DNA of 64,000 bases from a virus (IMGVR_UViG_2899275550_000002:1930-65929), one strand, 5' to 3'. Counted from the stretch's first letter, positions 2,174 to 52,700 are shown. Notes: generated by a model not told the origin, from the sequence alone. Numbers and translations are program-made.

Positions 2174-3550
2174 TCAGGAATTCTTAAGGAATCCTAGGTC
2201 CACAGCATTCATGGCCGTGGCTTTAACTGATAGGGATGGACCGCTACCGTAACGACTGCCTTCGTTTGAGCCAGTGTGGCCCATGATAAACTCTTGAACG
2301 TCAATCGGCACGGCCGCATCCCGCAGCAAGTCCTTGTAGGTGTGACGAAGGCTATGCACGGTTACGCGAGAATCAGCTTGATCCTCACGGATCTTGCGAA
2401 CGTGCCGCATCAGGGACTTGGACGCGGCATTTTGTGCCTTACCATCCACATCTGTGCGGTAGCTGAACAGCCGTCCTTTGCCTGCAGGCCCAAGTTTAAG
2501 CATGTTCGGGACTGGGATTTCCCGCTGGGACCGGAAGTTCTTCACTATCTTGTTAACCCGGCTCAAGTCGAAGTACTGGATGCCGCCTTCGACCTTGATG
2601 TCGTCCCACTCGAGCAGGGCGGCTTCATCCAAGCGCATACCCGTGGACGCCAAGATACCCAAGCAAAGTCGATCCTGTTCCGGCATGAACAAGCTGAACA
2701 ACTTTTCTAGGTCGGACCGCTTAATGCTCTTGCGGGCAACTGGAGCCCTGCCCTTATTTGCCAACCTTAGTCCAAGGAAGGGGTTGGACTGCAGCCAGCC
2801 CTGTTCGGCCGCATGACCCAGCACAAGACGTACTGCGCCGACATCCCGCTGCAGCGTATTACGTGATGCCGTCTTGCCCAAGTCTGCCGCGAAACTACTG
2901 CCCTGTTGCGCAGTGATGCTGGCGATATCAACATCACCAGCGAATGCCTCGAACTTCTTAACGCCCCGCTCATAGTCATGCCGCGTCCGCTGCCGCTTGA
3001 AGGTCTGCGACGCAAAATACGCCGCAGCTGCTTCGGTCAGCTTCATGCCACCTGTTTCCTTTGCTGTCGCGCGATGCGCTTCCAGCTGTTCCTCAAACTC
3101 CTCGTACGCCGGTTGAACGTCATCTTGCATACGGGCGATCACCATACCTTCTTCAGGATCACGCATTCCGGGGTTTGGCAGATGAAGAACCATCATGGCC
3201 CGCCCCCTTACATCGTCGATCTGTTCACGAAGATCGTCATCCTGCCACTGGTGAGGGTCCCAATTCAGTCCACCGGGCAACACAGCTTGGAGACGTGCCG
3301 CAGCCACGGCGAGAGGGGTATAGACTTTCCCCTTTTCGTCGAACTGCGCGTAAATCTGGCCAGCGATCCCATGTAAACGCCGTTCCGCTTCCGCACGATC
3401 CGCCGTGCCCGCGCTGCGTCGTTCCTGCTTACGCTCGTTGAACGCTGGACGAAGGTCCGGGTGTATCGTCACTTGGACGTACCACTTGCCTTTAACCTGG
3501 ACGAGTTTTGCGGCTGGGTAGGTCATCGTAATGTCCGAAATAATGTCCAC
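2174..3550 (-). CDS. int: Tyrosine recombinase/integrase with DUF6538-like N-terminus
   Basis: Catalytic signature TGMRLDEA (R), HSLRH (HxxR), MGH, RYG (Y); true start may be the ATG of MTYPAAKL. Confidence 0.92.
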   Translation of the reverse strand: MDIISDITMTYPAAKLVQVKGKWYVQVTIHPDLRPAFNERKQERRSAGTADRAEAERRLHGIAGQIYAQFDEKGKVYTPLAVAAARLQAVLPGGLNWDPHQWQDDDLREQIDDVRGRAMMVLHLPNPGMRDPEEGMVIARMQDDVQPAYEEFEEQLEAHRATAKETGGMKLTEAAAAYFASQTFKRQRTRHDYERGVKKFEAFAGDVDIASITAQQGSSFAADLGKTASRNTLQRDVGAVRLVLGHAAEQGWLQSNPFLGLRLANKGRAPVARKSIKRSDLEKLFSLFMPEQDRLCLGILASTGMRLDEAALLEWDDIKVEGGIQYFDLSRVNKIVKNFRSQREIPVPNMLKLGPAGKGRLFSYRTDVDGKAQNAASKSLMRHVRKIREDQADSRVTVHSLRHTYKDLLRDAAVPIDVQEFIMGHTGSNEGSRYGSGPSLSVKATAMNAVDLGFLKNS

Positions 3551-5905: not shown

Positions 5906-6889
5906 TTATCGATTGCCGATTTCGGGGATGCCCATCATCAGCGGCACGCCGGTGTGCTGCGCGGCCTCGTCAAGCGCCTCGCGGGCGGCATCCCGCAGCG
6001 CGGCGTCGGGGTTGTAGAGGGTCGCGAAGAACCGCACGTCCTGGCCTGCCTTGCGGTACCGGAACCGGACGGCAAGGCGGTAAAGCGCGCCTTCCTCGAA
6101 CACCGGGATCGCGATCATGAACAGGTTGGGCAGGCGCAGGGGCTGACCGTCAGGCGTCCGATGCTCATCCAGGAACTGCACTTGGGTTTCGCCCGTGTCG
6201 CGGTTCGTCGTGACGTTCAGGTGCCCCGTCTCGTGGACGGCAAAGCTGCGGGACAGCTGGACCAGGGTGGAATACTGGCCGAACCGGCCCTGGAGCTGCG
6301 CGGCCACCTCGATCATGCGCTGTTCCCAAGGCTCGGCCCCGTCGATGTTGCCGCTCAAGAGCTTCGGCGTCGGATCGAGCAAGTCCTTGGCGTTCTCCTC
6401 GATGAACTCGCCAAACTCGTCCTTGGTCAGGGCCTTGCCGCTGATGCCGGTCCACCGCTTCCATTCATCGGACACCGGAAACTGATAGAGGGCGGTGTGG
6501 CGACCATAGTTGGCGCTCGGATCGCCCTGCCCCTGCTTCAGGTCCGGGGCACCTTCGCCGTGATAGTCGATGATCGAAACCAGCTGGGGCCGAGGCTGCA
6601 GCTGCCCGAACAGCACCGTGTCATCGCCCTTGAAGCGATTGGTCCACTCGATCAGGCTGGGCAGATCGGACAGGACCGCCTTGCCGGTGCGCTGCAGCGG
6701 CTTGAACTGTTCCAGGATGGCCTGATGCTTCTGGGTCAGATCATGCAGCACCATGCCTTTCGGCGCAGCGACGATGAACGGCACCTCGGCGTCGTCAGAG
6801 CTGGGCGTGCTGACCGTCTGGACGGTTCCAAAGTCGCCCAGGTGTTCGAGGATGGTTTCAGCCACGTTCTTGCAGGGTTCTTGGCTCAC
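5906..6889 (-). CDS. DUF2303 (YfdQ-like) phage protein
   Basis: Motifs SLIEWTNRF, SDEWKRW, FGEFIEEN, LFMIAIPVFEEG, RFRYR. Confidence 0.8.
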   Translation of the reverse strand: MSQEPCKNVAETILEHLGDFGTVQTVSTPSSDDAEVPFIVAAPKGMVLHDLTQKHQAILEQFKPLQRTGKAVLSDLPSLIEWTNRFKGDDTVLFGQLQPRPQLVSIIDYHGEGAPDLKQGQGDPSANYGRHTALYQFPVSDEWKRWTGISGKALTKDEFGEFIEENAKDLLDPTPKLLSGNIDGAEPWEQRMIEVAAQLQGRFGQYSTLVQLSRSFAVHETGHLNVTTNRDTGETQVQFLDEHRTPDGQPLRLPNLFMIAIPVFEEGALYRLAVRFRYRKAGQDVRFFATLYNPDAALRDAAREALDEAAQHTGVPLMMGIPEIGNR

Positions 6890-12904: not shown

Positions 12905-12944
12905 GGACAATTGTCCGCGTCAACTATAAAAAGGACAATTGTCC
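12905..12944 (-). promoter_or_regulatory. PL-like promoter with two operators GGACAATTGTCC
   Basis: Perfect palindromes at 12905-12916 and 12933-12944 flanking a minus-strand TTGACG (12923-12918). Confidence 0.8.
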
Positions 12945-13012: not shown

Positions 13013-13038
13013 AAAAAGCCCGCCGGTTGGGGCGGGCT
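13013..13038 (-). terminator. Rho-independent terminator closing the immunity-region operon
   Basis: 8-bp stem agcccgcc/ggcgggct followed by a T-run on the minus strand. Confidence 0.8.
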
Positions 13039-13059
13039 GGGTTCAATCTGGTGGCGAGA

Positions 13060-13389
13060 TCAGGAGAACAGGCTTGCTATTTCCTCACGGAGGATAACCG
13101 CAACTATCCCGAGGACATATACCGTAAGCCACTTGTAGTCGATCTTGCTGTCCAGCTTGCCTTCCATCCTGGCGAGCTGGATCTTGATAGCGGACATGTC
13201 CTCGCGATACGAACGCAGGTCCGCTTTCACTTCTTTCATGTCCTCTACCAAGCGATCTACGCGCGCGTCCATGCCGCCTCCTGTTGGGCCACCCCCACCA
13301 TGTGGGATGTTTGGTCCGAAAGGCAAGCGCGAGACGAAGTCCACGACCCGCGGGTCTGGAGGCGGATCCGGTCTATCTGAGTTTGCCAT
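13060..13389 (-). CDS. Coiled-coil, C-terminally anchored membrane protein (immunity-region accessory)
   Basis: GGGGPTGGGMDARVDRL, heptad coiled coil, C-terminal TM WLTVYVLGIVAVIL. Confidence 0.75.
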   Translation of the reverse strand: MANSDRPDPPPDPRVVDFVSRLPFGPNIPHGGGGPTGGGMDARVDRLVEDMKEVKADLRSYREDMSAIKIQLARMEGKLDSKIDYKWLTVYVLGIVAVILREEIASLFS

Positions 13390-13642
13390 CTTCCCCCCAA
13401 ATACAATCGTGTGCGGCTGTCATTGCTTCCTGTAGTTGTTGCGCACGCTCTCTAAGGGATTGTGCCTGCTCCTCCGTGATTTGTTGGCCAGAGATTGTGC
13501 GAGAGTTAGTTGCGCTCAGTTCAAACGACAGGGTGCCCACCGTCTGAATCGCATTATATAGATGCGCCATAGCGGTCTGTGCGTACAGAACGTCTTTTTG
13601 CAATCGGTCGAATTCGTCCCTGCTGACCAAGCCGCTGCTCAT
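13373..13642 (-). CDS. Hypothetical protein (immunity-region accessory)
   Basis: 89 aa, GAGAGGA SD, overlaps next gene. Confidence 0.7.
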   Translation of the reverse strand: MSSGLVSRDEFDRLQKDVLYAQTAMAHLYNAIQTVGTLSFELSATNSRTISGQQITEEQAQSLRERAQQLQEAMTAAHDCIWGEDGKLR

Positions 13643-13652
13643 GTTGATCCTC

Positions 13653-13904
13653 TCATTCCCGACCGCTACGAATTGAGTCGTGCTTCGCCTGCATCTCGGC
13701 GCGCTTAAGGTCGATCCATGTGCCGACCAAGGAGCGCCCAGGGCGGATCGAAGACAGACCCGCGTATGCTAACACGCAGCCTGAGACGGCGAGGATCGCG
13801 ATCACCATCAGCCAGCCCTCTAGGTTGAGATCGTCCACATAGGCGACCATCGTGCCGAACGACATCCCGCCAAAGCCAGCCAGTGCGGTGATCACTCTCA
13901 ACAT
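13653..13904 (-). CDS. Two-TM membrane protein (immunity-region accessory)
   Basis: Two hydrophobic helices, 83 aa; TTG start. Confidence 0.65.
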   Translation of the reverse strand: MLRVITALAGFGGMSFGTMVAYVDDLNLEGWLMVIAILAVSGCVLAYAGLSSIRPGRSLVGTWIDLKRAEMQAKHDSIRSGRE

Positions 13905-13976
13905 CTAGTTATCCCCTGATTCTTCCTCAAGAAAATGTGGTCAACCTATCTTTAGGGCAGTTGCGCACTACGCAAT

Positions 13977-13991
13977 GTTCCGCTTACGTTC
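13977..13991 (+). promoter_or_regulatory. Alphaproteobacterial LexA (SOS) box
   Basis: Exact GTTC-N7-GTTC (gttc cgcttac gttc) in an intergenic region, 8 nt before a TACAAT -10-like hexamer (13999-14004). Confidence 0.75.
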
Positions 13992-14018
13992 TTATGTGTA
14001 CAATGGGGTGGGGGTTGG

Positions 14019-14210
14019 ATGTCAGATGATCTTGTCGGATTCGTTTCATCCCTGCGGCGCATCATTGCGGAGCCGTGCCCGCGTCGTCGCGCCGTCCTCG
14101 TGCAGCGGCTCGCAGAATGTCCCGCTCTTCTGGCGTCAGTGAGCGCCACAGATCTACGGCTTCGGATCGAAGATCAGCGGTCTGGTCATGGAGCATCTCG
14201 TCGAGAGTGA
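14019..14210 (+). CDS. Candidate SOS-induced small protein antisense to the repressor 3' end (possible antirepressor)
   Basis: 63-aa ORF directly after the LexA box and -10; G-rich SD; overlaps cI on the opposite strand. Confidence 0.4.
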   Translation: MSDDLVGFVSSLRRIIAEPCPRRRAVLVQRLAECPALLASVSATDLRLRIEDQRSGHGASRRE

Positions 14211-14397
14211 AGCCCAGCGCGTTTGCGAGCTTCACGGCGTCGTCGACATTGGTCGAGGCGCGCTCGCCCTTGCCCGCCCGCTGCATGAATTTCGTCACTT
14301 GGTCGGTTGATACGCCCGCCTCTTGGCACAGGCGCGAGATCGACCAGCCAGAGCTGGTCAGGGCTTCTTTAAGGGCGTCGTAGAAGCGTCTAGGCAT
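14062..14397 (-). CDS. Prophage repressor (XRE/CI-like HTH) without S24 peptidase domain
   Basis: SISRLCQEAGVSTDQVTKF HTH, AVKLANALGFTLDEM; divergent from the cro-like gene; only 111 aa. Confidence 0.85.
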   Translation of the reverse strand: MPRRFYDALKEALTSSGWSISRLCQEAGVSTDQVTKFMQRAGKGERASTNVDDAVKLANALGFTLDEMLHDQTADLRSEAVDLWRSLTPEERDILRAAARGRRDDAGTAPQ

Positions 14398-14434
14398 GTG
14401 GGTATTTAGCTGGATAGCTGGCTAGCAAGCTAGC

Positions 14435-14476
14435 GGACAAAAGTCCATTGACATGATCAGGACAAAAGTCCATGTT
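14435..14476 (+). promoter_or_regulatory. PR-like promoter with two operators GGACAAAAGTCC
   Basis: Operators at 14435-14446 and 14460-14471 bracket TTGACA (14448-14453); 17-nt spacer to CATGTT. Confidence 0.8.
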
Positions 14477-14482
14477 CGCTGC

Positions 14483-14701
14483 ATGGACCGAGAAAAACTC
14501 ATCACCCTCATCAAGGAACACGCCGAGAATTTCGGCCTTGCTCCTGCAACCATCACTGGGAAGGCGGTCGATAATAGCCGCCTTTACAGCCGATTGGTCA
14601 GCGGCGGTGACTGCACCACATCGATCGCCGCAAAGGTGAGCGATTGGGTTGATGCAGATCGTGCCCGCCGCTCCGAAGCAATGAAAGGGGCGGCAGAATG
14701 A
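14483..14701 (+). CDS. Cro-like transcriptional regulator
   Basis: 72 aa, ATITGKAVDNSRLYSRL HTH-like; first gene right of the switch. Confidence 0.8.
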   Translation: MDREKLITLIKEHAENFGLAPATITGKAVDNSRLYSRLVSGGDCTTSIAAKVSDWVDADRARRSEAMKGAAE

Positions 14702-15033
14702 CCGCCCCTTCAACCCACTGTTTTGATGACTTCTCCGCACAGGGAAACATCAACACAGGAGCCTACCCAATGTCCTCTGGAAAGAATTCCGGCCTATCCG
14801 GCCGCCGGTCGGTCATGAGCTATCGCCAGCACTTCGCGATCGTCTGGCAACGGTTCATCACCGAGAACTTCGACAGCCCAGCCCACGCGGCCCATGTGTT
14901 CCAGGTCGATGCCTCGACAGCCGCGAACTGGTGGACCGGGCAGAACGCCCCGTCCGGCTGGGTGGTCGGTCGAGCGATTGCCGATCCCCTCCTGCGCGAT
15001 GCCGCGCTTCACCTTCTGACGGGGCAACCATGA
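14698..15033 (+). CDS. CII-like HTH regulator (start may be 14770)
   Basis: AAHVFQVDASTAANWWTGQNAPSG HTH; position after cro. Confidence 0.65.
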   Translation: MTAPSTHCFDDFSAQGNINTGAYPMSSGKNSGLSGRRSVMSYRQHFAIVWQRFITENFDSPAHAAHVFQVDASTAANWWTGQNAPSGWVVGRAIADPLLRDAALHLLTGQP

Positions 15034-19476: not shown

Positions 19477-19490
19477 CGGACAATTGTCCG
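19477..19490 (+). promoter_or_regulatory. Fifth operator CGGACAATTGTCCG upstream of the packaging genes
   Basis: 14-bp perfect palindrome identical in core to the PL operators, directly followed by TTGATT. Confidence 0.7.
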
Positions 19491-40714: not shown

Positions 40715-40763
40715 CATAGGACATGGGCTCGCTGATCCACACCCTCGGAGAAGCCCCATGTCC
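40715..40763 (+). promoter_or_regulatory. DarB leader RNA switch
   Basis: CAT-AGGAC-ATG hairpin; GGACATGGG (40719-40727) is complementary to CCCATGTCC (40755-40763), which covers the ATG. Confidence 0.7.
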
Positions 40764-43700
40764 GGCAATACGCCCGCTGCCCGCGCAATTGCGCAGATCG
40801 ACGCCCTCTATGGTGCGCAGACCGCCCCCCAATCTACCGACATCAAGGCGATTTCGCGCAAGACGCGCGTGCCGGTCAATGTGCTGGTGGCGCTGGACGA
40901 GGGCCGCGGCGATCTGAAGGCGGTCGAGGCTCATGCCACCCGGATCGCGCAGGCGGTCGAGGCGGGCAAGCCGATCGAGGATGCCATCTATGAGGTTGCG
41001 GGCGACGAGGGGCGCGGGCGGGCTATCCTGGACACCGCCTATGATCTGGCAGACCGGATGGAGCCCCCTGCCCCCGCCGCCGCCGACAGCGGCAATGATG
41101 GGCGCGTGGGTATCGCGGAAGGCGTGGCCGGGATCGCGCGGGATTTCGGATCGGGGATGCTGCGCGCGGGCGGTGGTGCGCTGGAAGCGGCCGGCGTGGT
41201 GGCCGACGAGGCCGTACGCGGCGCGTTCAGCGATGATCCGTCCCAGGCAACGCCCCTGCGCGGAGCAGGCCGGGCGGCGGGCGACGTGGCGCGCGGCGCG
41301 GGCGAAGGCATCGCGGCGGGGCGCAGCGAGGATTACCAGCGTGTGCGCGAGGGCACGCAGCCGGGCGGCAGTCTGGCGGACCCGTCCAGTTGGTCCCTTG
41401 GCGACGATCCGTCAATGCTGGGCCTTGCGGGCCTGACTGCCGAGGGTCTGGGTTCCATGGCCCCCGTGGTGGCCGCTGGCGTCCTGACCAAGAGCCCGGC
41501 GCTGGCCGGTTCGATCGTCGGCGGCCTGATGGGCGGCGGCGAGGGCGTCGAGACGGGCCGCCAGTTCGTCCAGGACGCGGCCAAGACCCTGGATGAGAAC
41601 GGGCGCCCGGTCATCGAGGGACTGCCGGAATACCAGAAGTTGCGCGAGGCGGGCACCAGCCACGACCGCGCCGTGGCCGATCTGACGCGCCGGGCCGAGA
41701 ACGAGGCCGGGTTCCGGCAGGGCATGGTGGCGGGCCTGGGCGGCGCTGCGACCAACCGCATCCTGATGGGCGCTGACGGCTGGCTTGGGCGCGGCGGGCG
41801 GCTGGCGCGCGCTGGCAAGAAGGGCGCGGCGTCGGCGCTGGAGGAGGGCGCGCAGGAAACCGCAGAGGGCGTGGCCGGGGGCCTGGGCATCGAGGCGGCC
41901 ACCGGGGCCAATGTCGACCTGATGGAGGACAGCTTCGGTGATTTCGTCGCGGGCTCGCTGGCCGGTGGCGCAATGGGCGCAGGCGCGGGCGCATTGGGGC
42001 GCGGAACGGATCGACCGGACCCGCAGCCCGACACCCCGCCTGCCCCGCCCGAGCGGCTGGCCCTGCCCGCGCCCGAGAACGGCGGCACGATCTTTGGCCG
42101 CCCACCTTCCGCCGACATCAACCCGGCGATGCCCTTGGGCCTGCCGTCTCCCACCAACGGCGGAACCATTATCCCCCCGGCACCGGCCCCGCGCCAGCCG
42201 GGCGAGCCAGAGCCGATCACGGTTCGGCAGACCCCCGATTTAGCCGGGCCGTCTCCTGACGCGCCCGCACCCTTGGTCCCGGCTGGCGGCAGCAGCCTGG
42301 ATCAGACCGCCGCGCCTACCCTTTCCTCCTCCCTCGGGGCGGGCGCGGCGGTTCCTGATGCCGGAATGGGTATCATGCCCGTTCCCCCGGTTGCCCCGCC
42401 TGCCGGGCCAGTCGAAGCGATCGCACAGAGCCTTGCGGCGTCGATTCCGGCGCCGGTGGCCGAACCCGCCCCCCGGTTCCCCGATCAGAAGCCGGGCGCT
42501 ACGGTCCTGCTGGGAAGCCCGGAAGGCGCGAACGAGAATGCGGTGTTCCTGCGCGAGACGCCCGAGGGCGCGCTGGTGCGGATTCAGGGCCAGGAGGTCG
42601 AGCTGACGCCCGAGGCGTTCGACGCGGCCCGCAATCAGGCCGAGGTGAACCAGAACCGCGAGGAAACCCCGCGGGGCGATCTGGGCGGCAACTCGGTGGC
42701 GGCATCGGTCGGCGCCAAGAAGCGCACCCCCATTGCCCTGTCGGTCGAGGAAGAATTTGCCCGGCTGAACCCGGAGCAGGCCCGCAAGCGCCTCGACGGG
42801 CTGACGGCACAAGCCAAGCAGCGCGGCTGGGATGCCCGCCGCCGGAACCTGCGCACCATCCTGGAGGGGCGCATTGCACTCGGAGGACCGGCCAATGTGG
42901 AACCCACAAGCGCAGAAGATGGGCCCGAGGGCGGGCCTGCCCCCGCTGGGGTGGATGATGTGCGCGCGGACAGCGGCGAAGGAGCTGCAGCGCGCGGGGT
43001 TCCTGACCAGGAAGGAGCGCAAGCGCCTGGTGGCATGGATCGAGAACCCGGAGAGGGAGCAACCCGACCCGAGCCTGACGGCGGTGCTGTGGGCGGTCTG
43101 GATGTGGCAGGCGACACCGGGAAGCTGGGCGGTTCACTGACCGCAGCCCGCGCGGCCGGGCTGATCACGCACACCACCAAGAAGGGCAAGGCCAAGACCG
43201 GCTATGTGCTGCAAGGCGTGACCAAGGCCGAGGCCGACGCGATCGACCCCTATTCGTTCAAGAAGGACGGCGGCGTGTTCGTAAACGCCGAGCGGGCCGA
43301 TGCGTTCGCGCCTGCTGAAAACGCAGCCAAATCCAACCCGGAGGTTCTCACAGTTGGTGTAGACAAACAGAAGCCCCCCCGTGTAAAAAGGGACACGCGG
43401 GAGGCCTCGAATGACAACGCACCGAATGTCGAAAACGGTCGAGTACGGAACCTGGCAACGGATGAAAGCCAGATGCCTACGGCCGACGCACAAGGATTAT
43501 CCGACATACGGAGGGGCGGGGATAACGATAGCCCCGGAATGGGTGGACGACTTTCCGGCCTTCCTAGCGGAGGTCGGGCTGAAGCCGAGCCCAATCCACT
43601 CGATCGACCGGATCAAGCCGGAACTGGGCTATCGTCCAGGCAACGTTCGATGGGCGACGCCTCAGCAGCAAGCGGAGAACAGGCCGGGGTTCGTCAAAGA

Positions 43701-46700
43701 CTTGGCGGGCAAAACGGCGATGGAAACAGCCAAAGCGGCGGGGATCGTTCCATCGACCCTGTATCGCAGGCTGGCAGTCGGGATGCCGATGGAGAAGGTG
43801 TTGAGCAACCAGCGCCTTCCAACCGGTCCATATCGGAGGATGCTGACCCACAACGGCGAGTCGCTTCCGCTGAAGGTATGGGCGCGGAAGGTGGGGTTGA
43901 AGCCAACGACACTTCGCGAGAGGCTACGGCGCGGCTGGACGGTCAATCAGGCACTGACGACGCGGGTGTAACAGCCCCCGCCGCTGCCCCACCCCCGACC
44001 GGCGTGGCCGCGGCACTGTCCGACGCCGACCAGGCGCGCATGGCAGAGCTGAAGAATAAGCTGGCCGACCGGCTGCGGAACCAGGCCAACAGCGGCCTCG
44101 ATCCCGAATTGCTGGGCATGGCCGTCGAGCTGACCGGCCTCTATGTGAAAGGCGGCATCCGCAAGTTCGGCGCCATGCTGCGCGATTTCATGGCCGACAC
44201 AGGCCTGACGGCGCGCGAATCCCAACGCTACATGCGCGCGGCCTACAATGACGTGCGCGACAATGCCGATCTGAACGGCGAGGACGTGAGCGCGTTCGAC
44301 ACCGCCGATCAGGTCATGGCCGAAGTCCGCGCCGCGCTGGCCGAGCCCGAGACGGCACCTGTCGAAACAGCCACATCGCAAGAATCGCCCGAAGGTGATA
44401 GCATCGGGCAGGACACTCAACCGGAGGGCGCGCCCGATGATCGAAACAGCACTGATGAAGGCGATGGTCGAGCAAGCCCCGACCGAGGCCCGCAAGATCC
44501 AGAAACGCGGCCCGAACGCGCTGAAGGATCACGTCAGCGCCGTGGTCGAGCGGACGCGGGCCAATCTGGACCCGAACCCGACGCAGGACGATCCGGCGGG
44601 CGACGTGATGATGCGCGAGATGGTGATGGCCGAAGCGATGGCCGAGCTGTCGATGGGCAACGACTAGAGCCAGGCCGAAACCACGTTATCCCCGAGGGCG
44701 GCCTTGCCCTAAAAGGCGGCGACAAGACCCGCGCCCGTGCTGCCGTGAAGGCCATCGAGATCGTGCGCGATCTGGAGCGCGAGGGGCGGCCTGCCACCTA
44801 TAATGAACGTCAGCAGCTCGCCCAATACGGCGGTGCGGGCGTCCTCGCCCCTGCCCTGCCCAACAGCGCGGGCAAGATCAGGATGGAGGACATCGCCGCC
44901 GATCTGGACCACCTGCTGACGCCCGAGGAACGGGCGACCATCGAAAAGACCAGCCAATATGCCTTCTATACGGCTGAACCCGTCCTGCGGAATATGTGGG
45001 CGCTGGCGCAGCGCCTTGGCTTCACCGGCGGCCAGGTGTTCGAGCCCGGTATGGGTGTGGGCGGTTTCGCGGGTACCATGCCCAAGAGCGTGTTCGGCCA
45101 GTATTCCGGCATCGAGCTGGATCATGTCACGGCCAAGATCGCCGCGGCGCTTTACCCGCAGTCGCACATCAAGCACGGCGATTTCATCCAGACCCCCATG
45201 CCGCGGGACTTCTACGACCTAGTGATCGGCAACCCGCCCTTCTCGCAGACCAAGATCACCGCCGACCCCGCCTATCCGCAGGGGTTCATGATCCACGACT
45301 ATTTCTTCGCCAAGAGCCTCGACAGCGTGCGGCCGGGCGGCCTGCTGATGTTCGTGACCAGCGCCGGCACGATGAACAAGCGCAACACCAAGGCCCGCGA
45401 CTATCTGGCCGACCGGGCCGACTTGGTGGGCGCGGTCCGCCTGCCCAACACCGCCTTTGCGGAGAACGGCACGCAGGTCACGACCGACATCATCGTGCTG
45501 CGCAAGCGTCTGGAGGGCGAGGCCGAGGCCAACCCGGCATGGCGCGAATCCACGCTGGTCACATACCCGGATGGCAAGGGTGGCACGGTCGATCTGGCCG
45601 TGAACCGCTATTTCCAGGAGAACCCCGAGATGATCCTTGGGGAGCAGGGTGCATTCGACACGCTGGTCGGCGCCCCCCGGATCGGCGTGCGCCCGCGCGA
45701 GGGTGCGAACCTGGCGCGCGACCTGCGCACCGCCTTGGAGAGCTTTCCCGAGCGCATCATGTCGGCCCCGTCTGCCCTGCAGATGATGGACGGCCCCCGC
45801 GATGCCACCAGCGCCGAGACGAAAACCGGCAGCTATTACCTGAAGGATGGCGAGCTGTGGCAGTTCGACGGACGCGAGGGCAAGCCGGTCCAGCGCAAGG
45901 GCAAGAGCGGCGGCGGGATGACCAAGGGGGATTACGAGCTGATTACCCAGCTGGTGCCCATCAGGAACGCCCTGCGCGCCGTCTATACCGCCGATCTGGC
46001 CGAGACGGATGCCACCGCCGCCCGAGCGGAGCTGAACCGCCTCTATGACGCCTTCGTGGAAAAGAACGGCCCCCTGAACAAGGTCGAGGAAAGCTATCGC
46101 CGCCCGTCCGCTGTTGAGCTGGAAGGGCTGCGCCAGCGTGCGGCCGAGGACGCGCGGTCTGCCGGGCTGGATTTCGACACCGGCAGCTTCGATGCCGGGC
46201 CGCTGATCGAGGCAGAGGCCAGCATGGCCGCCATCGCCCGCGCGCGGCGCGAGGCCTCCCATGAGCCGGGATACCGGGAAGGCACGTTCAACCCCGATGC
46301 CGTGCCCGACAAGGTGATCGAGAAGTTCCCGAACATGGACCCCTTCCGGGGCGATCCCGAATCCTTCCGGCTGCGCGCCATCGAGAAGTTCGACCGGGCA
46401 ACCGGCCAGGCCCGCAAGACCCGCGTGTTCACCGAGAACGCGGTGAAGAAGGCCACCGCGCCCAAGATTAATTCCCCCGAGGATGCACTCCTGCACCAGC
46501 TGGCCGATACCGGGCGGATCGACATCGACCGGATCGCGGAGGCATCGGGATCGACGCCTGAGCGCGTCCGCGCCGAGTTGAAGGGCAAGGTGTTCGAGAA
46601 CCCGGCCACGGGCGAGATGGAGACGCGGACCCGCTACCTTTCGGGCAATGTGCGGCGCAAGCTGGCCGAGGCGCAGGCCGCCATCGCACGCGACATCCGC

Positions 46701-49700
46701 TTTGCCGAGAACGTGGCCGAGTTGGAGAAGGTCATCCCCGACCCGATCCCGCGCAGCGGCATTGTCGTACCCCTGGGCGCGCATTGGTTCGATCATGGCC
46801 TCTATGCTGAGTTCGCCAAGTCGAAAGGGCTGACCCTCAAGGCCGAGTTCAAGCGCGCCCTGGGCCAGTGGATTGTCGATGGCGATAAGAGCAGCGCACC
46901 GGCCAAGAACGAATGGGGCACCGAGGACGTGCCGTTCGCGGAGATGATGCGCCGCGCCATGAACAACAAGCCCATGCGCGTGTCGCGGACGGTGAAGAAC
47001 GCGGATGGCAGCACCACGACCTTTGTGGACGAGGAAGCCACCCAGGCCGCCGCCGACAAGGCAGCCGAGCTGCGCACCGCCTTTGCCGACTGGCTGTGGT
47101 CCGACGAGGCCCGGGCCGAGATGCTGGAGGAACGCTATAACGAGGCGTTTAATGCCGAGGTGGCGCCCGTCTATGATGGTGCCTACCTGACCACGCCGGG
47201 TATCAACGCAGGCTGGACCTGGCGGCCCCACCAGACCGCTGTTGTCGCGCGCATCCTGCAGTCGGGCAGCACCTACATGGCCCATGCGGTCGGCGCCGGT
47301 AAAACCAGCGCCATGATCGGCGCAGGCATGGAGGCCCGCCGCCTCGGGCTGGCACAGCGCCCGTGGTATTCGGTCCCGAACCACATGCTTGTGCAGTTCG
47401 CCACCGAGTTCCAGGAGCAATACCCGCTGGCGAATATCCTGGTTGCGGACGAGAACAACTTCCAGGGCGACCGTCGCCGCCAGTTCGTCGCGGACGCGGC
47501 CAGCGGCGATTACGATGCCGTCATCATCACGCACAGCGCGTTCGAGCTGATCCCGTCCAGCCCCGCCGCCAAGGCCGCTGTGGTCGAGGGGATGCTTGCC
47601 GACCTGCGCGAGCTGATCCAGGACCAGAGCGACAACCCACGCGATCGAGTGCCCGGCCAGGATCAGGCCACCCTGGGCGCGCTGAAATCCGTCGCTGCGG
47701 CCTTGGGCATCAAGGAAGGCAAGAAGGACGCAGGCGATAAGGTCAGCACCGCCAAGAAGATCGCGCAGATGATGGAGCAGGCCGAACAGCGCCTGACCGC
47801 CATGACGCAGGACACCGGCAAGGACGAGGTGTTCACCTTCGATGAGATCGGCGTCGACATGCTGTTCGTGGACGAGGCCCATCTGTTCCGCAAGCTGTCC
47901 TTCGCCACGACCAACGGCAGCATCAAAGGCATCGACCCCAAGGGGTCCAGCATGTCGATGGACCTCTACATCAAATCTCGATCGGTGGACCGGCGCAATC
48001 CGGGCCGCGGGCTGGTGTTCGCCTCGGGAACGCCGATCACCAACACCATGGCCGAGCTGTTCAGCCTGCAGCGTTTCATGCAGCCGCAGGCGTTGGACGA
48101 GCGCAACATCAGCGCCTTCGATGCCTGGGCGGCAACCTTTGGCGAGGTGGCGAGTGAATTGGAGCAGACCCCGGATGGGGGCTACAAGGAGGTCAGCCGG
48201 TTCAGCAAGTTCGTGAACACGCCCGAGCTGTCGTTGATGGTGCGGCAGGTCATGGACATCGTGACCAGCGCCGACCTTGAGAAATACGTCACCCGCCCGC
48301 AGCTGCGCGGCGGCGGGCGCAACCTGGTCGTGATCGAGTCCAGCCCGGAGCAGAAGGCGTTCCAGCGCGACCTGGCCGCTCGCATGAGGGCCATGCAGCA
48401 GCGCAAGGGCAAGCCGAAGCCCGGCGATGACATCATGCTGAACGTGGTGAACGATGGCCGCCTGGCTGCGATCGACATGCGGCTTGTGGACCCCACCGCC
48501 AGCGGCGAGGGCTCGAAGCTTGAGCGGATGATCCAGAATGTCTATCAGGGCTGGAAGGCCGGGGCCGATGCGCCCCTGCATGGCGTGAAGCCGGAAGGCG
48601 GCTATACCGCCAAGCCGGTGATGCGCGGCGCCACCACGCAGATCATCTTTTCCACGCTTGGCGTGAACCCCTCGAAGCACAATCCGAGCTTTTCGGTGCA
48701 TCGCCATATCAAGGCATCACTGATCCGCATGGGCGTGCCCGAGAGCGACATCATCATGGCGGGCGACCTGAAATCGCACCTGGCCAAGCAGCGCGCGTTC
48801 AACGACATGAACGAGGGCAAGCGCCGAATCCTGATCGGGTCCAAGTCGATCTTCACGGGCGTCAACGCGCAGCGCCGCCTGGCGCAAATCCACAACCTCG
48901 ACCCGCTATGGTTCCCCGCCGACGATGAGCAGCGCAACGGGCGCGGCATCCGGCAGGGGAACATGAACCCCGAGATCGCGATCAACGACTATTCGACCAA
49001 AGGCACCTATGACGCGACCATGTGGCAGATGATGGGCCGCAAGGCCGCATTCATCGAGGGCTTCTATCGCGGCGACCCGACCATGCGGGACATGGAGGAT
49101 CTGGGCGAGGCCAGCGCGTTCGAGCAGGCCAAGGCCATGACCACGAGCGACCCGCGCATCCTGCAGCTGACCGAGCTGAAAACCGAGCGCGACAAGCTGC
49201 GCCGCCGGGCGGGGGCCGTGGATACGCAGCGATCCAAGCTGCGCGCGCAGATCAGGTCGGCCATGCGCGGAATCGAGTTCAACCGCGACGAGGCGCGCAA
49301 AGTCGAACCCATCACGGGGGTGATCCCCGATCTTTCGGGCGACAAGTTCAAGATGCGCGTCGGCGCCACCGAGTTCGACAGCCGCAAGGAGGCTGGCGAG
49401 GCGATCATGGCGCGCGTCGAGGCGCTGGCCGAGGCTGGCAAGTCGGTGAGCGAGATTGTCGTCGGCAACATCGGCGGGTTCCCCGTCGAGGCTGACTGGT
49501 CGGAGCTCATGAAAAGCGCCCGCGTGGGCGTCCGTCACAGCCCGGTCATGGACCTGGCCGATGCCGAGTTCAGCGACGATCCCGTGGGCCTTGTCCGCAA
49601 GCTGGAACACGCCCTGAAGAAGCCGGAACGCTATCTGGAGTTCTATCAGGCCGAGGGGGCCAAGGCCGAGCGCCAGGCCGCCGCGCTGCGCGCCCAGCTG

Positions 49701-52700
49701 GAGGGCGTGAAGGAGTTTGCCGACCAGGCTAAGCTGGATGGCCTGGAAACCGAGATTGACACGCTGCAGGCGGCGCTGGTCGCGGATGCGGCGGCGGCCG
49801 AGGCCGAAGGCAATCAGGACGGACAGGTGGATGCCCCGCAGGAGTCCCGCTTCACAGCCGAGCCGGTTGTGAGCCTCACGGGCGACGAGCTGGGGGATTG
49901 GTCGGATATGCGCGACCTAGGCATGAAAGCCGAGGCTTGGTATCGGGAGAACCTTGTCGGCACGACCGTCACGATGGGCCAAACAGGCTGGAAGGTGCAG
50001 TTTGGCCGCGTGGGCTCGAAGAAGTTGGGCGGCCGGAAAGGTGATTTCCTGCTGCGGGCCGTGCCAGCCCTCGCGGCAATGATCGAGCAAGGAACGCTCG
50101 TTTCGAGCCAAGGCGACAGGAAGCGCGGCAACGAACGTCTGAAGTTCCATACCGTCCGGGCGCGTGTCTCGGTCGGCGGAGAGACGCATAATCTGTTCAT
50201 CACCATCCGAGAGGACGGTAATGGCCACTATCACTATGATCTGTCGATGGAGAACGGTGCCGAGGTCAGAAATTCAGGCGCGGCTGGTCGGGTAACTGAA
50301 GCCCGGAGCGGCGGTCTGAACGACCTCGGCACAATCAACATGGAGATCGCGGACAACTCTGTCAACGGCGCTGATCCTGAAATGACCCCTGCTTTTGCGC
50401 GTGCGATCAACGCTGCGGCCCGCGCGGAGCTGGAGAAGATCGGGATTGCCGGTCGTGTCCGGGCCGAGGCCGGGGGCGAGGGCCGCGCGGCTGGCACCTA
50501 TCAGCGCGGCGTCATCCGCATCCTTCGCACCCGCGCAGGCAAGTGGCGGCACACGCTCGATCACGAGATACTGCACGCTCTGCGCGACCCCGAGGCCTGG
50601 AGCGGCGAGGCGGGCCTGTTCACCCGGGCGGAATGGAGCGCCCTGGCGCGGGCGGCGCGGGCCGACAAGGCCGTGCGCGAGCGCGTCGAGGCGGCCTATC
50701 CTGATCTGACCGAGGCCGGGCGCACCGAGGAGATGGTGGCGGAGTTCTATGCCGATTGGGCACAGGGCAACCGTGAGGCCCCTGCCGGGCCGATGGCAAA
50801 TGCCCTGGGCCGCATCCGATCCTTCTTCAATGCCGTGGCGTCCGCGCTGCGCGGCGAGGGGTTCCAGGACGCGGCCACGATCATGCGGCGGATCGCCGGG
50901 GGCGAGGTCGGCGGGCGCGGGCCGGATGGGCCCGGTACCGGGCGCGGCGCGGCGCGCGAGCAGCGTAACATGGATGGCCTGACCAGTGCCCTGCGCGAGG
51001 GTGCCGCCCGGACCCGGAAACGGAGCGGGGTGGCCGCCCGCGCGCTGTTCAGCCGCGAGGCATGGAGCAATTCGCCCGAGGTGTTCAGCAATTTCCTGAC
51101 CGACGCCATGGGCCGCAACCAGCAGTTCAACCTGCTGGGCGCGGTGCCGGGCTATTCCCTGTTCAAGGAGCTGGGCAAGAACCTGTCGGCGGCCCAGACC
51201 TATCTGGGGCTCAAGCAGTCGATGGATGCCGAACGCAACGACTGGCAGGCCCGCGCCGCCGCAGCGGTGGACGAGTGGACCAAGATCGGCCGCAAGGACC
51301 AGGAGGCCAACACCCGCCTCATGGACCTGATGCACGAAAGCACGCTGGCTGGTATCGACCCGAGCAAGACCGACGACTGGCGGCACCCGCACCTGGACAG
51401 CGCGCGGCGCATCGACCGCGCCGATGTTGCCAGCCCCGAGGATCGCGCCTTTGCCGCCCGCGTGGCGCAGGAGATCGCGGACCATGAGGCAACCTATGAC
51501 CGCCTCAAGCGGCAGTTCGACGCGCTGCCGGCCGATTTCCAGTCCCTCTATGGCAAGGTCCGCGACGAATACGCGACTATGGCCGACGCGACCGATCAGG
51601 CCGTGCTGGACAACGTGAAGGTGGCGAACGAGCTGGCACTGAAGCGTGCCCAGAAGAAGCACAAGGACGAGATGCAGCGCATCAAGGACGAGGGGCTGAC
51701 CGGGGCTGCGCGCGACGAGGCCGTCGACCAGGCCGACCGTCGCCTGGCCGCCACCCAGAAGCGGGCGCGGGACAACGGCGCGGCCAGGATGGCAAGTCTG
51801 CGCGCAGCCTTCGAGACGAACCGCCTCAAGGGCCCGTATTTCCCGCTCGCTCGCTTCGGCAGCTATTTCGTCTCCGTGCGGGATGCCGATGGCGCTGTCA
51901 TTTCGTTCAGCCGGTTCGAGAAGAAAGCCCAGCAGGAGGACGAGGTGGCCCGCGCCGAAAAAGAGGGCGCGGCGGAAGGCTGGACCGTCACCCGTGGCGT
52001 CCTGGGCGGCGATGCCGACCTGAAAGGCATGGTGGACCCGCGCTTTGTGAGCGAGGTCGAGGGCATTCTGTCGGAATCGGACGCCAGCCCGGAGACGATG
52101 GACGCGATCTGGCAGCATTGGCTGGAGAGCCTGCCTGACCTGTCGGTGCGCAAGAGCCGGATCCACCGCAAGGGCCGGTCAGGATTCAACAAGGATGCGG
52201 TGCGGGCCTTTTCGTCGGCGATGTTCCACGGCGCGCACAACCTGGCGCGGCTGCGGTATGGCCTGCGCATGGATGATGCCCTGAACGAGGCCGAGGCGCA
52301 GGCCGGGCGTCAGGCTGATCCCGAGCGGGCCGGGTTCGTGGTGCGTGAGATGCGCCAGCGGCACAATTTCACCATGAAGCCGACGAACAACCCGTTGGTG
52401 ACGGCGGGCACGTCGCTCGCCTTCGTCTGGTATCTGGGCATGTCGCCTGCCTCTGCGCTGGTCAACATCAGCCAGACCACCATCTTCGGCGTGCCGATCC
52501 TGCGCACAGCCTTCCCCAAGGCGGGCGTGACGGGAGCCACAAAAGCCCTGGGCAAGGCCGCCGCTGATTTCGGGCGCGGCAAGGGCTGGACCGAGCGCAG
52601 CAAGAACCTGACCGAGGATGAGCGGGCCGCGATCCAGGAAGGCTATCGCCGGGGCACGATCGACAAGACGCAGGCGCATGATCTGGCCGCCGTCGCGGAG

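Follow-up and report, generated by a model that had tools for sequence, protein, structure and literature searches.

The window analysed here (IMGVR_UViG_2899275550_000002:1930-65929) is a 64,000-nt stretch of prophage DNA carrying genes for RecT, a DUF2303 protein, a replication-type HTH protein and a tyrosine integrase. The genome around it is Paracoccus-like, and Paracoccus names are attached to homologues of its 111-aa repressor. The repressor gene (14062–14397, minus strand) occupies the lambdoid cI position and is divergent from a cro-position gene (14453–14701, plus strand), the first gene of the rightward early operon. On the 3' side of the repressor gene lies an accessory cassette of three genes (13013–13904, minus strand), whose small proteins gave no significant Pfam match and none of which resembles AimR. 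An unannotated 63-aa gene (14019–14210, plus strand; conserved in 23 loci, alignment A3), which we consider a candidate SOS-induced antirepressor, is convergent with the repressor gene, sharing 149 nt with its 3' end; it is preceded by a LexA (SOS) box of the alphaproteobacterial type (13977–13991, plus strand), with 27 nt separating the box from the ATG at 14019. Elsewhere in the window, the late region holds a single ORF of 4394 codons (40758–53942), with a GC3 of 0.82 that is typical of real genes here.

Repressor and operators

The repressor consists of an HTH domain (residues 5–69) and a C-terminal helical hairpin (residues 73–105), and its AlphaFold model is all-helical (pLDDT 86). Pfam gave weak HTH_3/HTH_31/HTH_26 matches only and PHROG weak matches to transcriptional regulators and repressors; neither Pfam nor the AlphaFold model revealed an S24 domain. 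The sequence-only reading of this locus, which had described a 111-aa repressor lacking an S24 autoprotease, was thus confirmed. Because the protein is short, all-helical and devoid of the S24 domain, it would need an indirect route to induction. In a fold search, the best PDB match was SinR in the SinR/SinI complex (1b0n_A; E 2.5e-3, TM about 0.5, 16% identity), and oligomerisation would, from the model, proceed through the hairpin. PDB sequence matches of the repressor profile (designed repeat proteins, a TAL effector) were judged spurious. A repressor-peptide search of the genome contigs found nothing, and neither DNA nor protein had a match in the phage collection.

Two GGACAAAAGTCC operators (14435–14471) lie in the PR/PRM region between the repressor gene and the cro-position gene. 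The window contains five GGACAAWWGTCC palindromes in total (8 strand-matches, vs 0 expected by shuffling): they are paired at two early promoters (12905–12944 and 14435–14471) and single before the packaging genes (19478–19489), the second operator pair, at 12905/12933, being located beyond the three small accessory genes.

LexA box and start signals

The box, GTTCCGCTTACGTTC, is a GTTC-CGCTTAC-GTTC direct repeat, and GTTC-N7-GTTC is the published LexA motif of alphaproteobacteria (PMC3323433). The host has both recA and lexA, the latter found in contig C25, and their promoters carry GAAC-N7-GAAC (GAACAAGACAAGAAC at recA, GAACATAGGTAGAAC at lexA). Since both promoters carry the same motif, the box can be regarded as a host SOS operator—the identity that had been proposed for it from the sequence—and LexA would bind and repress at 13977–13991. 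The motif occurs 93 times in the whole 3.96-Mb genome and four times in the window, where 1.28 occurrences are expected (2 of 100 shuffles reach four). The other three window boxes (6866, 28528 and 60624) all lie within genes; the perfect GTTC-N7-GTTC at 6866–6880 falls in the first codons of the DUF2303 gene (5906–6889, minus strand), which follows the RecT gene in the leftward recombination operon.

A candidate promoter region extends over 13961–14004 (plus strand), in which a consensus scan gave no sigma-70 match. One candidate pair is TTGCGC (13961–13966) as -35 with TTACGT (13984–13989), which overlaps the box, as -10; the other candidate -10 is TACAAT (13999–14004), separated from the box by 7 nt. 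A perfect box before TACAAT and a 63-codon ORF had been reported from the sequence alone, and this arrangement held up, with 7 nt and 27 nt between the elements. As a conserved -10, TACAAT was rejected, being absent from that position in most relatives. In the window, L011, L013 and L016, a TTGnnn hexamer precedes the box by 10 nt, and would put the -10 over the second half-site. Promoter geometry differs among loci (box-to-ATG 11–36 nt); in those where merely 14–17 nt separate box and ATG, a -10 downstream of the box is impossible, and the promoter must therefore overlap the box.

Between TACAAT and the start codon lies a G-rich, Shine-Dalgarno-like stretch, GGGGTGGGGG (14005–14014, plus strand). 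All 23 homologues with an intact ORF have an ATG or GTG start behind a similar stretch, located within approximately 15 nt upstream of the start and mostly at 3–9 nt.

Conservation of the box and the small ORF

We gathered repressor relatives from assemblies, metagenomes, viral contigs and species genomes, and small-ORF relatives by a six-frame profile search of 400 genomes of the family. Absence of box and ORF from relatives had been set down in advance as an outcome that would speak against the proposed switch; instead, a perfect box ending 11–36 nt before the small-ORF start was found in 16 of 24 distinct loci, a box being counted as near the ORF when it lay within 65 nt upstream of the start codon. 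The rest of those loci (101 kb) contained only 4 boxes, and the density near the ORF is about 260 times the background, although the 24 loci are related, so that the counts are not independent and their independence is overstated. The half-sites are invariant across loci, while the N7 spacers differ in almost every one, and in 2 of the 16 the box is inverted yet still adjoins the ORF. That flanks and spacers diverged while the half-sites were kept argues for selection on the site itself. Taken by itself, the window offers little evidence; it is this conservation in relatives that lifts the box and the ORF above chance.

The next leftward gene in relatives encodes 67–188 aa and lies roughly 60–265 nt from the box, whereas box-to-ORF spacing is steady. 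Because the leftward gene varies in both length and distance, the box appears to belong to the ORF and not to the accessory cassette, which we accordingly do not list as its target. Eight of the 24 loci (L012, L015, L019, L024, L026, L054, L053 and L042) have no perfect box near the ORF, the L053 box having one mismatch and the L042 box lying at a distance of 149 nt, so that not every member of the small-ORF family is under SOS control.

Across the family, the small protein ranges from 58 to 78 aa, the overlap from about 122 to 224 nt and the dual-coding length from 41 to 74 codons. At distant loci, where the repressors are only 21–29% identical overall to that of the window, the C-terminal segment 'L.PEER.ILLAAARG' and the antisense ORF are both kept; in every locus found, the small ORF is physically tied to this repressor segment. 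In L002 (247–468) and L007 (3188–3385), the repressor tail is 17 residues longer and the whole small ORF, start included, lies within the repressor gene, with the LexA box only 13–14 nt beyond the repressor stop codon.

Other upstream elements are seen at three loci. L024 (1487–1650) and L026 (809–970), the two most distant repressor relatives (45% identity), have two GGACA-N4-TGTCC palindromes approximately 60–110 nt upstream of the small ORF and no LexA box; these palindromes are of the same kind as the repressor operators in the window, and might be part of the neighbouring leftward promoter. In L056 (1623–2837), a metagenome contig of about 50% GC, a 258-aa HTH_3 protein divergent from the small ORF stands in place of the LexA box; there the 58-aa small ORF was called, and the overlapping 98-aa HTH repressor was left uncalled. 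Given these three cases, the controlling input of the small gene appears exchangeable.

Three further observations concern individual relatives. L011, with a repressor 84% identical to that of the window, has an in-frame TAA at ORF codon 7 (approximately 3359–3379, minus strand) and an intact LexA box; possible explanations are decay to a pseudogene, a sequencing error or a variant that cannot be induced. In the genome of the window itself, L003 (G000:C57:79463-79660) contains a 254-aa open frame that starts with an HTH 47% identical to the repressor N-terminus, a length compatible with a cleavable cI/LexA-like repressor from a different prophage. A possible link between the relative L007/L029 and phiPam-6, a mitomycin-inducible phage of P. 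aminophilus, was sought through the published att repeat of the phage, which the provirus record lacks.

Dual coding and selection

The claim that the ORF overlaps the cI 3' end on the opposite strand was upheld: the dual-coding segment (14062–14210) specifies repressor residues 63–111 on the minus strand and small-ORF residues 15–63 on the plus strand. When we resampled the repressor's synonymous codons with the protein kept, the antisense frame was open in 50% of trials for the window, and the chance of an open frame at a single locus was 0.06–0.74. Openness alone was rejected as evidence, the chance of an open frame being too high. The GC3 of the ORF is 0.52, low and atypical for genes of this genome. 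The frame is open in 16 of 17 loci found through the repressor alone, and the product of the resampling chances over 15 resampled loci is about 3e-5, a value that treats related loci as independent and is thus overstated. Contigs of about 50% GC, where the frame would be open by chance with a probability of 0.06–0.14, also retain the ORF.

The overlap coincides with reduced synonymous variation in the repressor gene. Pairwise synonymous diversity was 0.575 at repressor codons 2–62 vs 0.424 at codons 76–103 (Mann-Whitney by column, p 0.0014). Within the overlap, single codons are frozen (E79 GAA in 14/14, A80 GCC in 13/13, A99 GCA in 15/16, R103 CGC in 12/12), and CTT, CGA, GCT and ATT predominate at L76, R77/R100, A97/A98 and I94, respectively. 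The frozen codons are rare in the 65% GC background; in the non-overlapped part of the repressor, A27, V29 and R40 use all their codons. Repressor third positions are small-ORF second codon positions; in the small protein, the frozen bases preserve R47-L48, which hardly varies, and the V-Q-Q/R-L stretch.

Selection was also seen where the ORF lies clear of the conserved repressor core. Over its first 24 codons, which face intergenic DNA or the variable repressor tail, no other of the six frames reaches so high a pS or so low a pN/pS (0.66) as the ORF frame, in an alignment that was built on that frame and favours it somewhat. Between the closest pairs, the same region showed pN of 0.23–0.33 and pS of 0.68–0.84. 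Judged by these ratios, purifying selection acts on the tip of the ORF that lies beyond the repressor core, and, as far as codon comparisons can tell, the small ORF is a real gene. Translation of 14019–14210 is predicted, and is indirectly supported by the conserved starts, the ribosome-binding stretches and pN/pS.

The small protein and its family

AlphaFold predicted three helices for the small protein (residues 2–17, 21–32 and 35–56), with a pLDDT of 81.5 from 16 sequences. Among 1.84 billion proteins searched with a profile, 42 matched, of which 38 are small (45–131 aa) and share the core 'LR.I..LP.G.ER..LVQRLA..PAL'; the presence of small family proteins in this library implies that gene callers sometimes call the ORF. 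There were no matches when the ORF was used in a word-based protein search, and the ESM Atlas gave no usable match.

Neither the ORF nor 10 diverse homologues had a match in Pfam or PHROG, antirepressor families included, a result that bears on homology only and not on mechanism. Fold searches of the PDB and BFVD/viral models yielded nothing beyond generic helical matches (E > 0.5, Z at most 6.3). As a test of hairpin mimicry, the ORF and repressor profiles were compared with each other, and the probability was 0.1%. Across these searches, the small protein has no sequence or fold likeness to any known antirepressor.

Comparison with known induction systems

The closest parallel in layout is the AimX-AimC pair of Bacillus phi106 and relatives, the 'extended arbitrium' module. 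In phi106, the gene for the 29-aa AimX comes just after a LexA site and shares 30 bp with the end of aimC, the short repressor gene; AimX heterodimerises with the helical C-terminal oligomerisation domain of AimC, abolishing DNA binding. Function survives recoding of aimX and is lost in a start-to-stop mutant, which makes the antisense RNA dispensable (bioRxiv 10.1101/2025.11.23.689978, Kabel et al. 2025). Both systems have a LexA site followed by a small ORF that is convergent with, and overlaps, the end of the repressor gene, a likeness drawn from layout and published descriptions. AimC is a short HTH repressor, unresponsive to RecA, with a small helical C-terminal oligomerisation domain, and the repressor here is modelled as an HTH with a hairpin; the AimX of BMBtp14 is predicted to have three helices, as is the small protein of the window. 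Unlike phi106, the present locus has no AimR/AimP genes, has an alphaproteobacterial host and a GTTC-N7-GTTC box, and encodes a larger protein (58–78 aa vs 29 aa) with a longer overlap (about 122–224 nt vs 30 bp) that bears a measurable dual-coding signature. The arrangement, first regarded as unusually compact, is thus less unusual than thought, phi106 having the same layout.

SinI is a small helical protein that antagonises SinR via the C-terminal hook. The repressor model has the layout of Bacillus subtilis SinR (PDB 1b0n), an HTH followed by a C-terminal helical hook, by a weak match. SinI, however, is neither under LexA control nor antisense to sinR, and is not of phage origin. We consider the SinR/SinI parallel, an architectural one drawn from the model, to be weak but apt.

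The same logic—a non-cleavable repressor, a LexA-controlled promoter and a small inactivating protein—is known from 186 Tum, N15 AntC and Gifsy GfoA/GfhA/GftA (PMC3121763, PMC10432266). Unlike the ORF described here, those genes lie far from the repressor gene without overlapping it, and are preceded by LexA boxes of the E. coli type. In the TF-smORF modules of Vibrio linear plasmid-like phages (Silpe et al. 2023, PMC10432266), a small protein likewise inactivates its partner repressor without proteolysis; these modules are SOS-independent, lie between repA and telN and have no overlap with the repressor gene, and it is the L056 layout that resembles them.

Proposed mechanism and alternatives

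We regard it as moderately probable that the locus is the SOS induction module of this Paracoccus-type prophage, in which a LexA-repressed small antirepressor binds the C-terminal helical hairpin of the repressor. In the lysogen, host LexA on the box (13977–13991) would keep the rightward promoter shut; upon DNA damage, LexA would be cleaved and the promoter would fire towards the repressor gene. The 63-residue, three-helix protein would then be translated from 14019–14210, opposite the last 49 repressor codons, and would most likely bind the hairpin (73–105), blocking the oligomerisation needed on the paired GGACAAWWGTCC operators. Inactivation of the repressor would release the early lytic promoters, and the transcript, antisense to the repressor mRNA and co-directional with the cro-side operon, may make a lesser contribution. 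What the sequences establish is the box, the gene, their conservation and the dual-coding signature; LexA binding, the promoter elements and the binding of the protein to the repressor are the parts of this scheme that we infer. Inactivation of the repressor by the small protein is suggested by three considerations: no other SOS input to the repressor is visible, the other three window boxes lying inside genes; the linkage to the repressor C-terminal segment is obligatory; and there is precedent. Overall, the sequence comparisons support the original interpretation of the locus as an SOS induction switch.

The function assigned to the small protein comes purely from inference, with no homology or fold match to constrain it, and a protein that is real and SOS-induced could act on a target other than the repressor, such as SOS modulation, cell division or another phage step. 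LexA-controlled prophage genes with other roles do exist: the Gifsy antirepressor genes, 1.3 kb past the replication genes, adjoin dinI homologues (PMC3121763). We nevertheless consider such a target unlikely, because the gene is tied to the repressor C-terminal segment in every locus, with repressors down to 21–29% identity, because the repressor would otherwise have no visible SOS route and because the layout matches that of an antirepressor module shown experimentally in phi106.

Less likely again, and rather improbable as the principal mechanism, is that the LexA-controlled transcript works mainly as RNA—through antisense pairing, collision or read-through to the cro side—with the peptide irrelevant or secondary. 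The transcript necessarily runs antisense through the repressor gene and, as the search of 13300–14900 revealed no terminator-like site on the plus strand, could reach cro at 14453; the frozen synonymous sites could in principle reflect an RNA constraint. The lambda OOP RNA, a short convergent transcript over the cII 3' end with a LexA site in its promoter (PMC5869508, PMC2327240), is comparable in layout, but it is non-coding and targets cII and not the maintenance repressor, whereas the transcript here carries a conserved, selected ORF. Against an RNA-only effect, 23 loci conserve both the start codon and the ribosome-binding stretch, selection at the protein level is detected in the ORF part outside the repressor core, the frozen third positions keep chemically consistent ORF residues (R47-L48, V-Q-Q/R-L), and the fold of the small protein is predicted with confidence. 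By analogy, the experimentally dispensable antisense RNA of phi106, where recoded aimX worked and the start-to-stop mutant failed, also argues for protein as the effector. An RNA mechanism may contribute.

That the box controls the leftward cassette (13904 to 13013) or is a chance match, the ORF being a by-product of the repressor sequence in GC-rich DNA, is very improbable: the box does lie between the repressor gene and the cassette, the host recA/lexA boxes are in the GAAC orientation, which points leftward here, the excess of boxes in the window is weak (4 vs 1.3 expected) and the antisense frame had a 0.50 chance of being open, but box-to-ORF spacing is held at 11–36 nt while leftward gene length and distance vary, 16 of 17 repressor-found loci keep the frame open, as do loci at 50% GC, and start signals and selection are present in the ORF frame.

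Significance

The antirepressor logic (Tum, AntC, Gifsy) and the convergent, overlapping layout (phi106) were already known. New features are the family to which the small protein belongs, the occurrence of that family across Rhodobacterales-type prophages, an overlap of this length with its clear dual-coding footprint, and the apparent cassette behaviour. On this last point we tentatively suggest, as a conceivable though doubtful reading, that the antirepressor and the repressor domain it recognises share the two strands of the same 120–220 bp, forming an inseparable key-and-lock cassette that has spread onto diverged HTH domains. If so, recombination could not split the cassette, and overprinting would keep induction specificity matched to the repressor in mosaic phages.

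If the proposed antirepressor mechanism is true, it would explain how widespread Rhodobacterales prophages with short non-cleavable repressors sense DNA damage; such prophages occur in the genera Paracoccus, Pararhodobacter and Haematobacter, among others, and in numerous metagenome contigs. The locus also adds an undescribed small-protein family, usually missed by standard annotation because its genes lie antisense inside another gene; in some contigs, the gene caller chose the small ORF and dropped the repressor. It further provides a well-supported bacterial case of long antisense dual coding (41–74 codons) with a footprint on codon choice. Taken with AimX-AimC of phi106, the locus suggests a general induction design for prophages that has evolved repeatedly, in which a small gene under LexA control runs into the end of the repressor gene.
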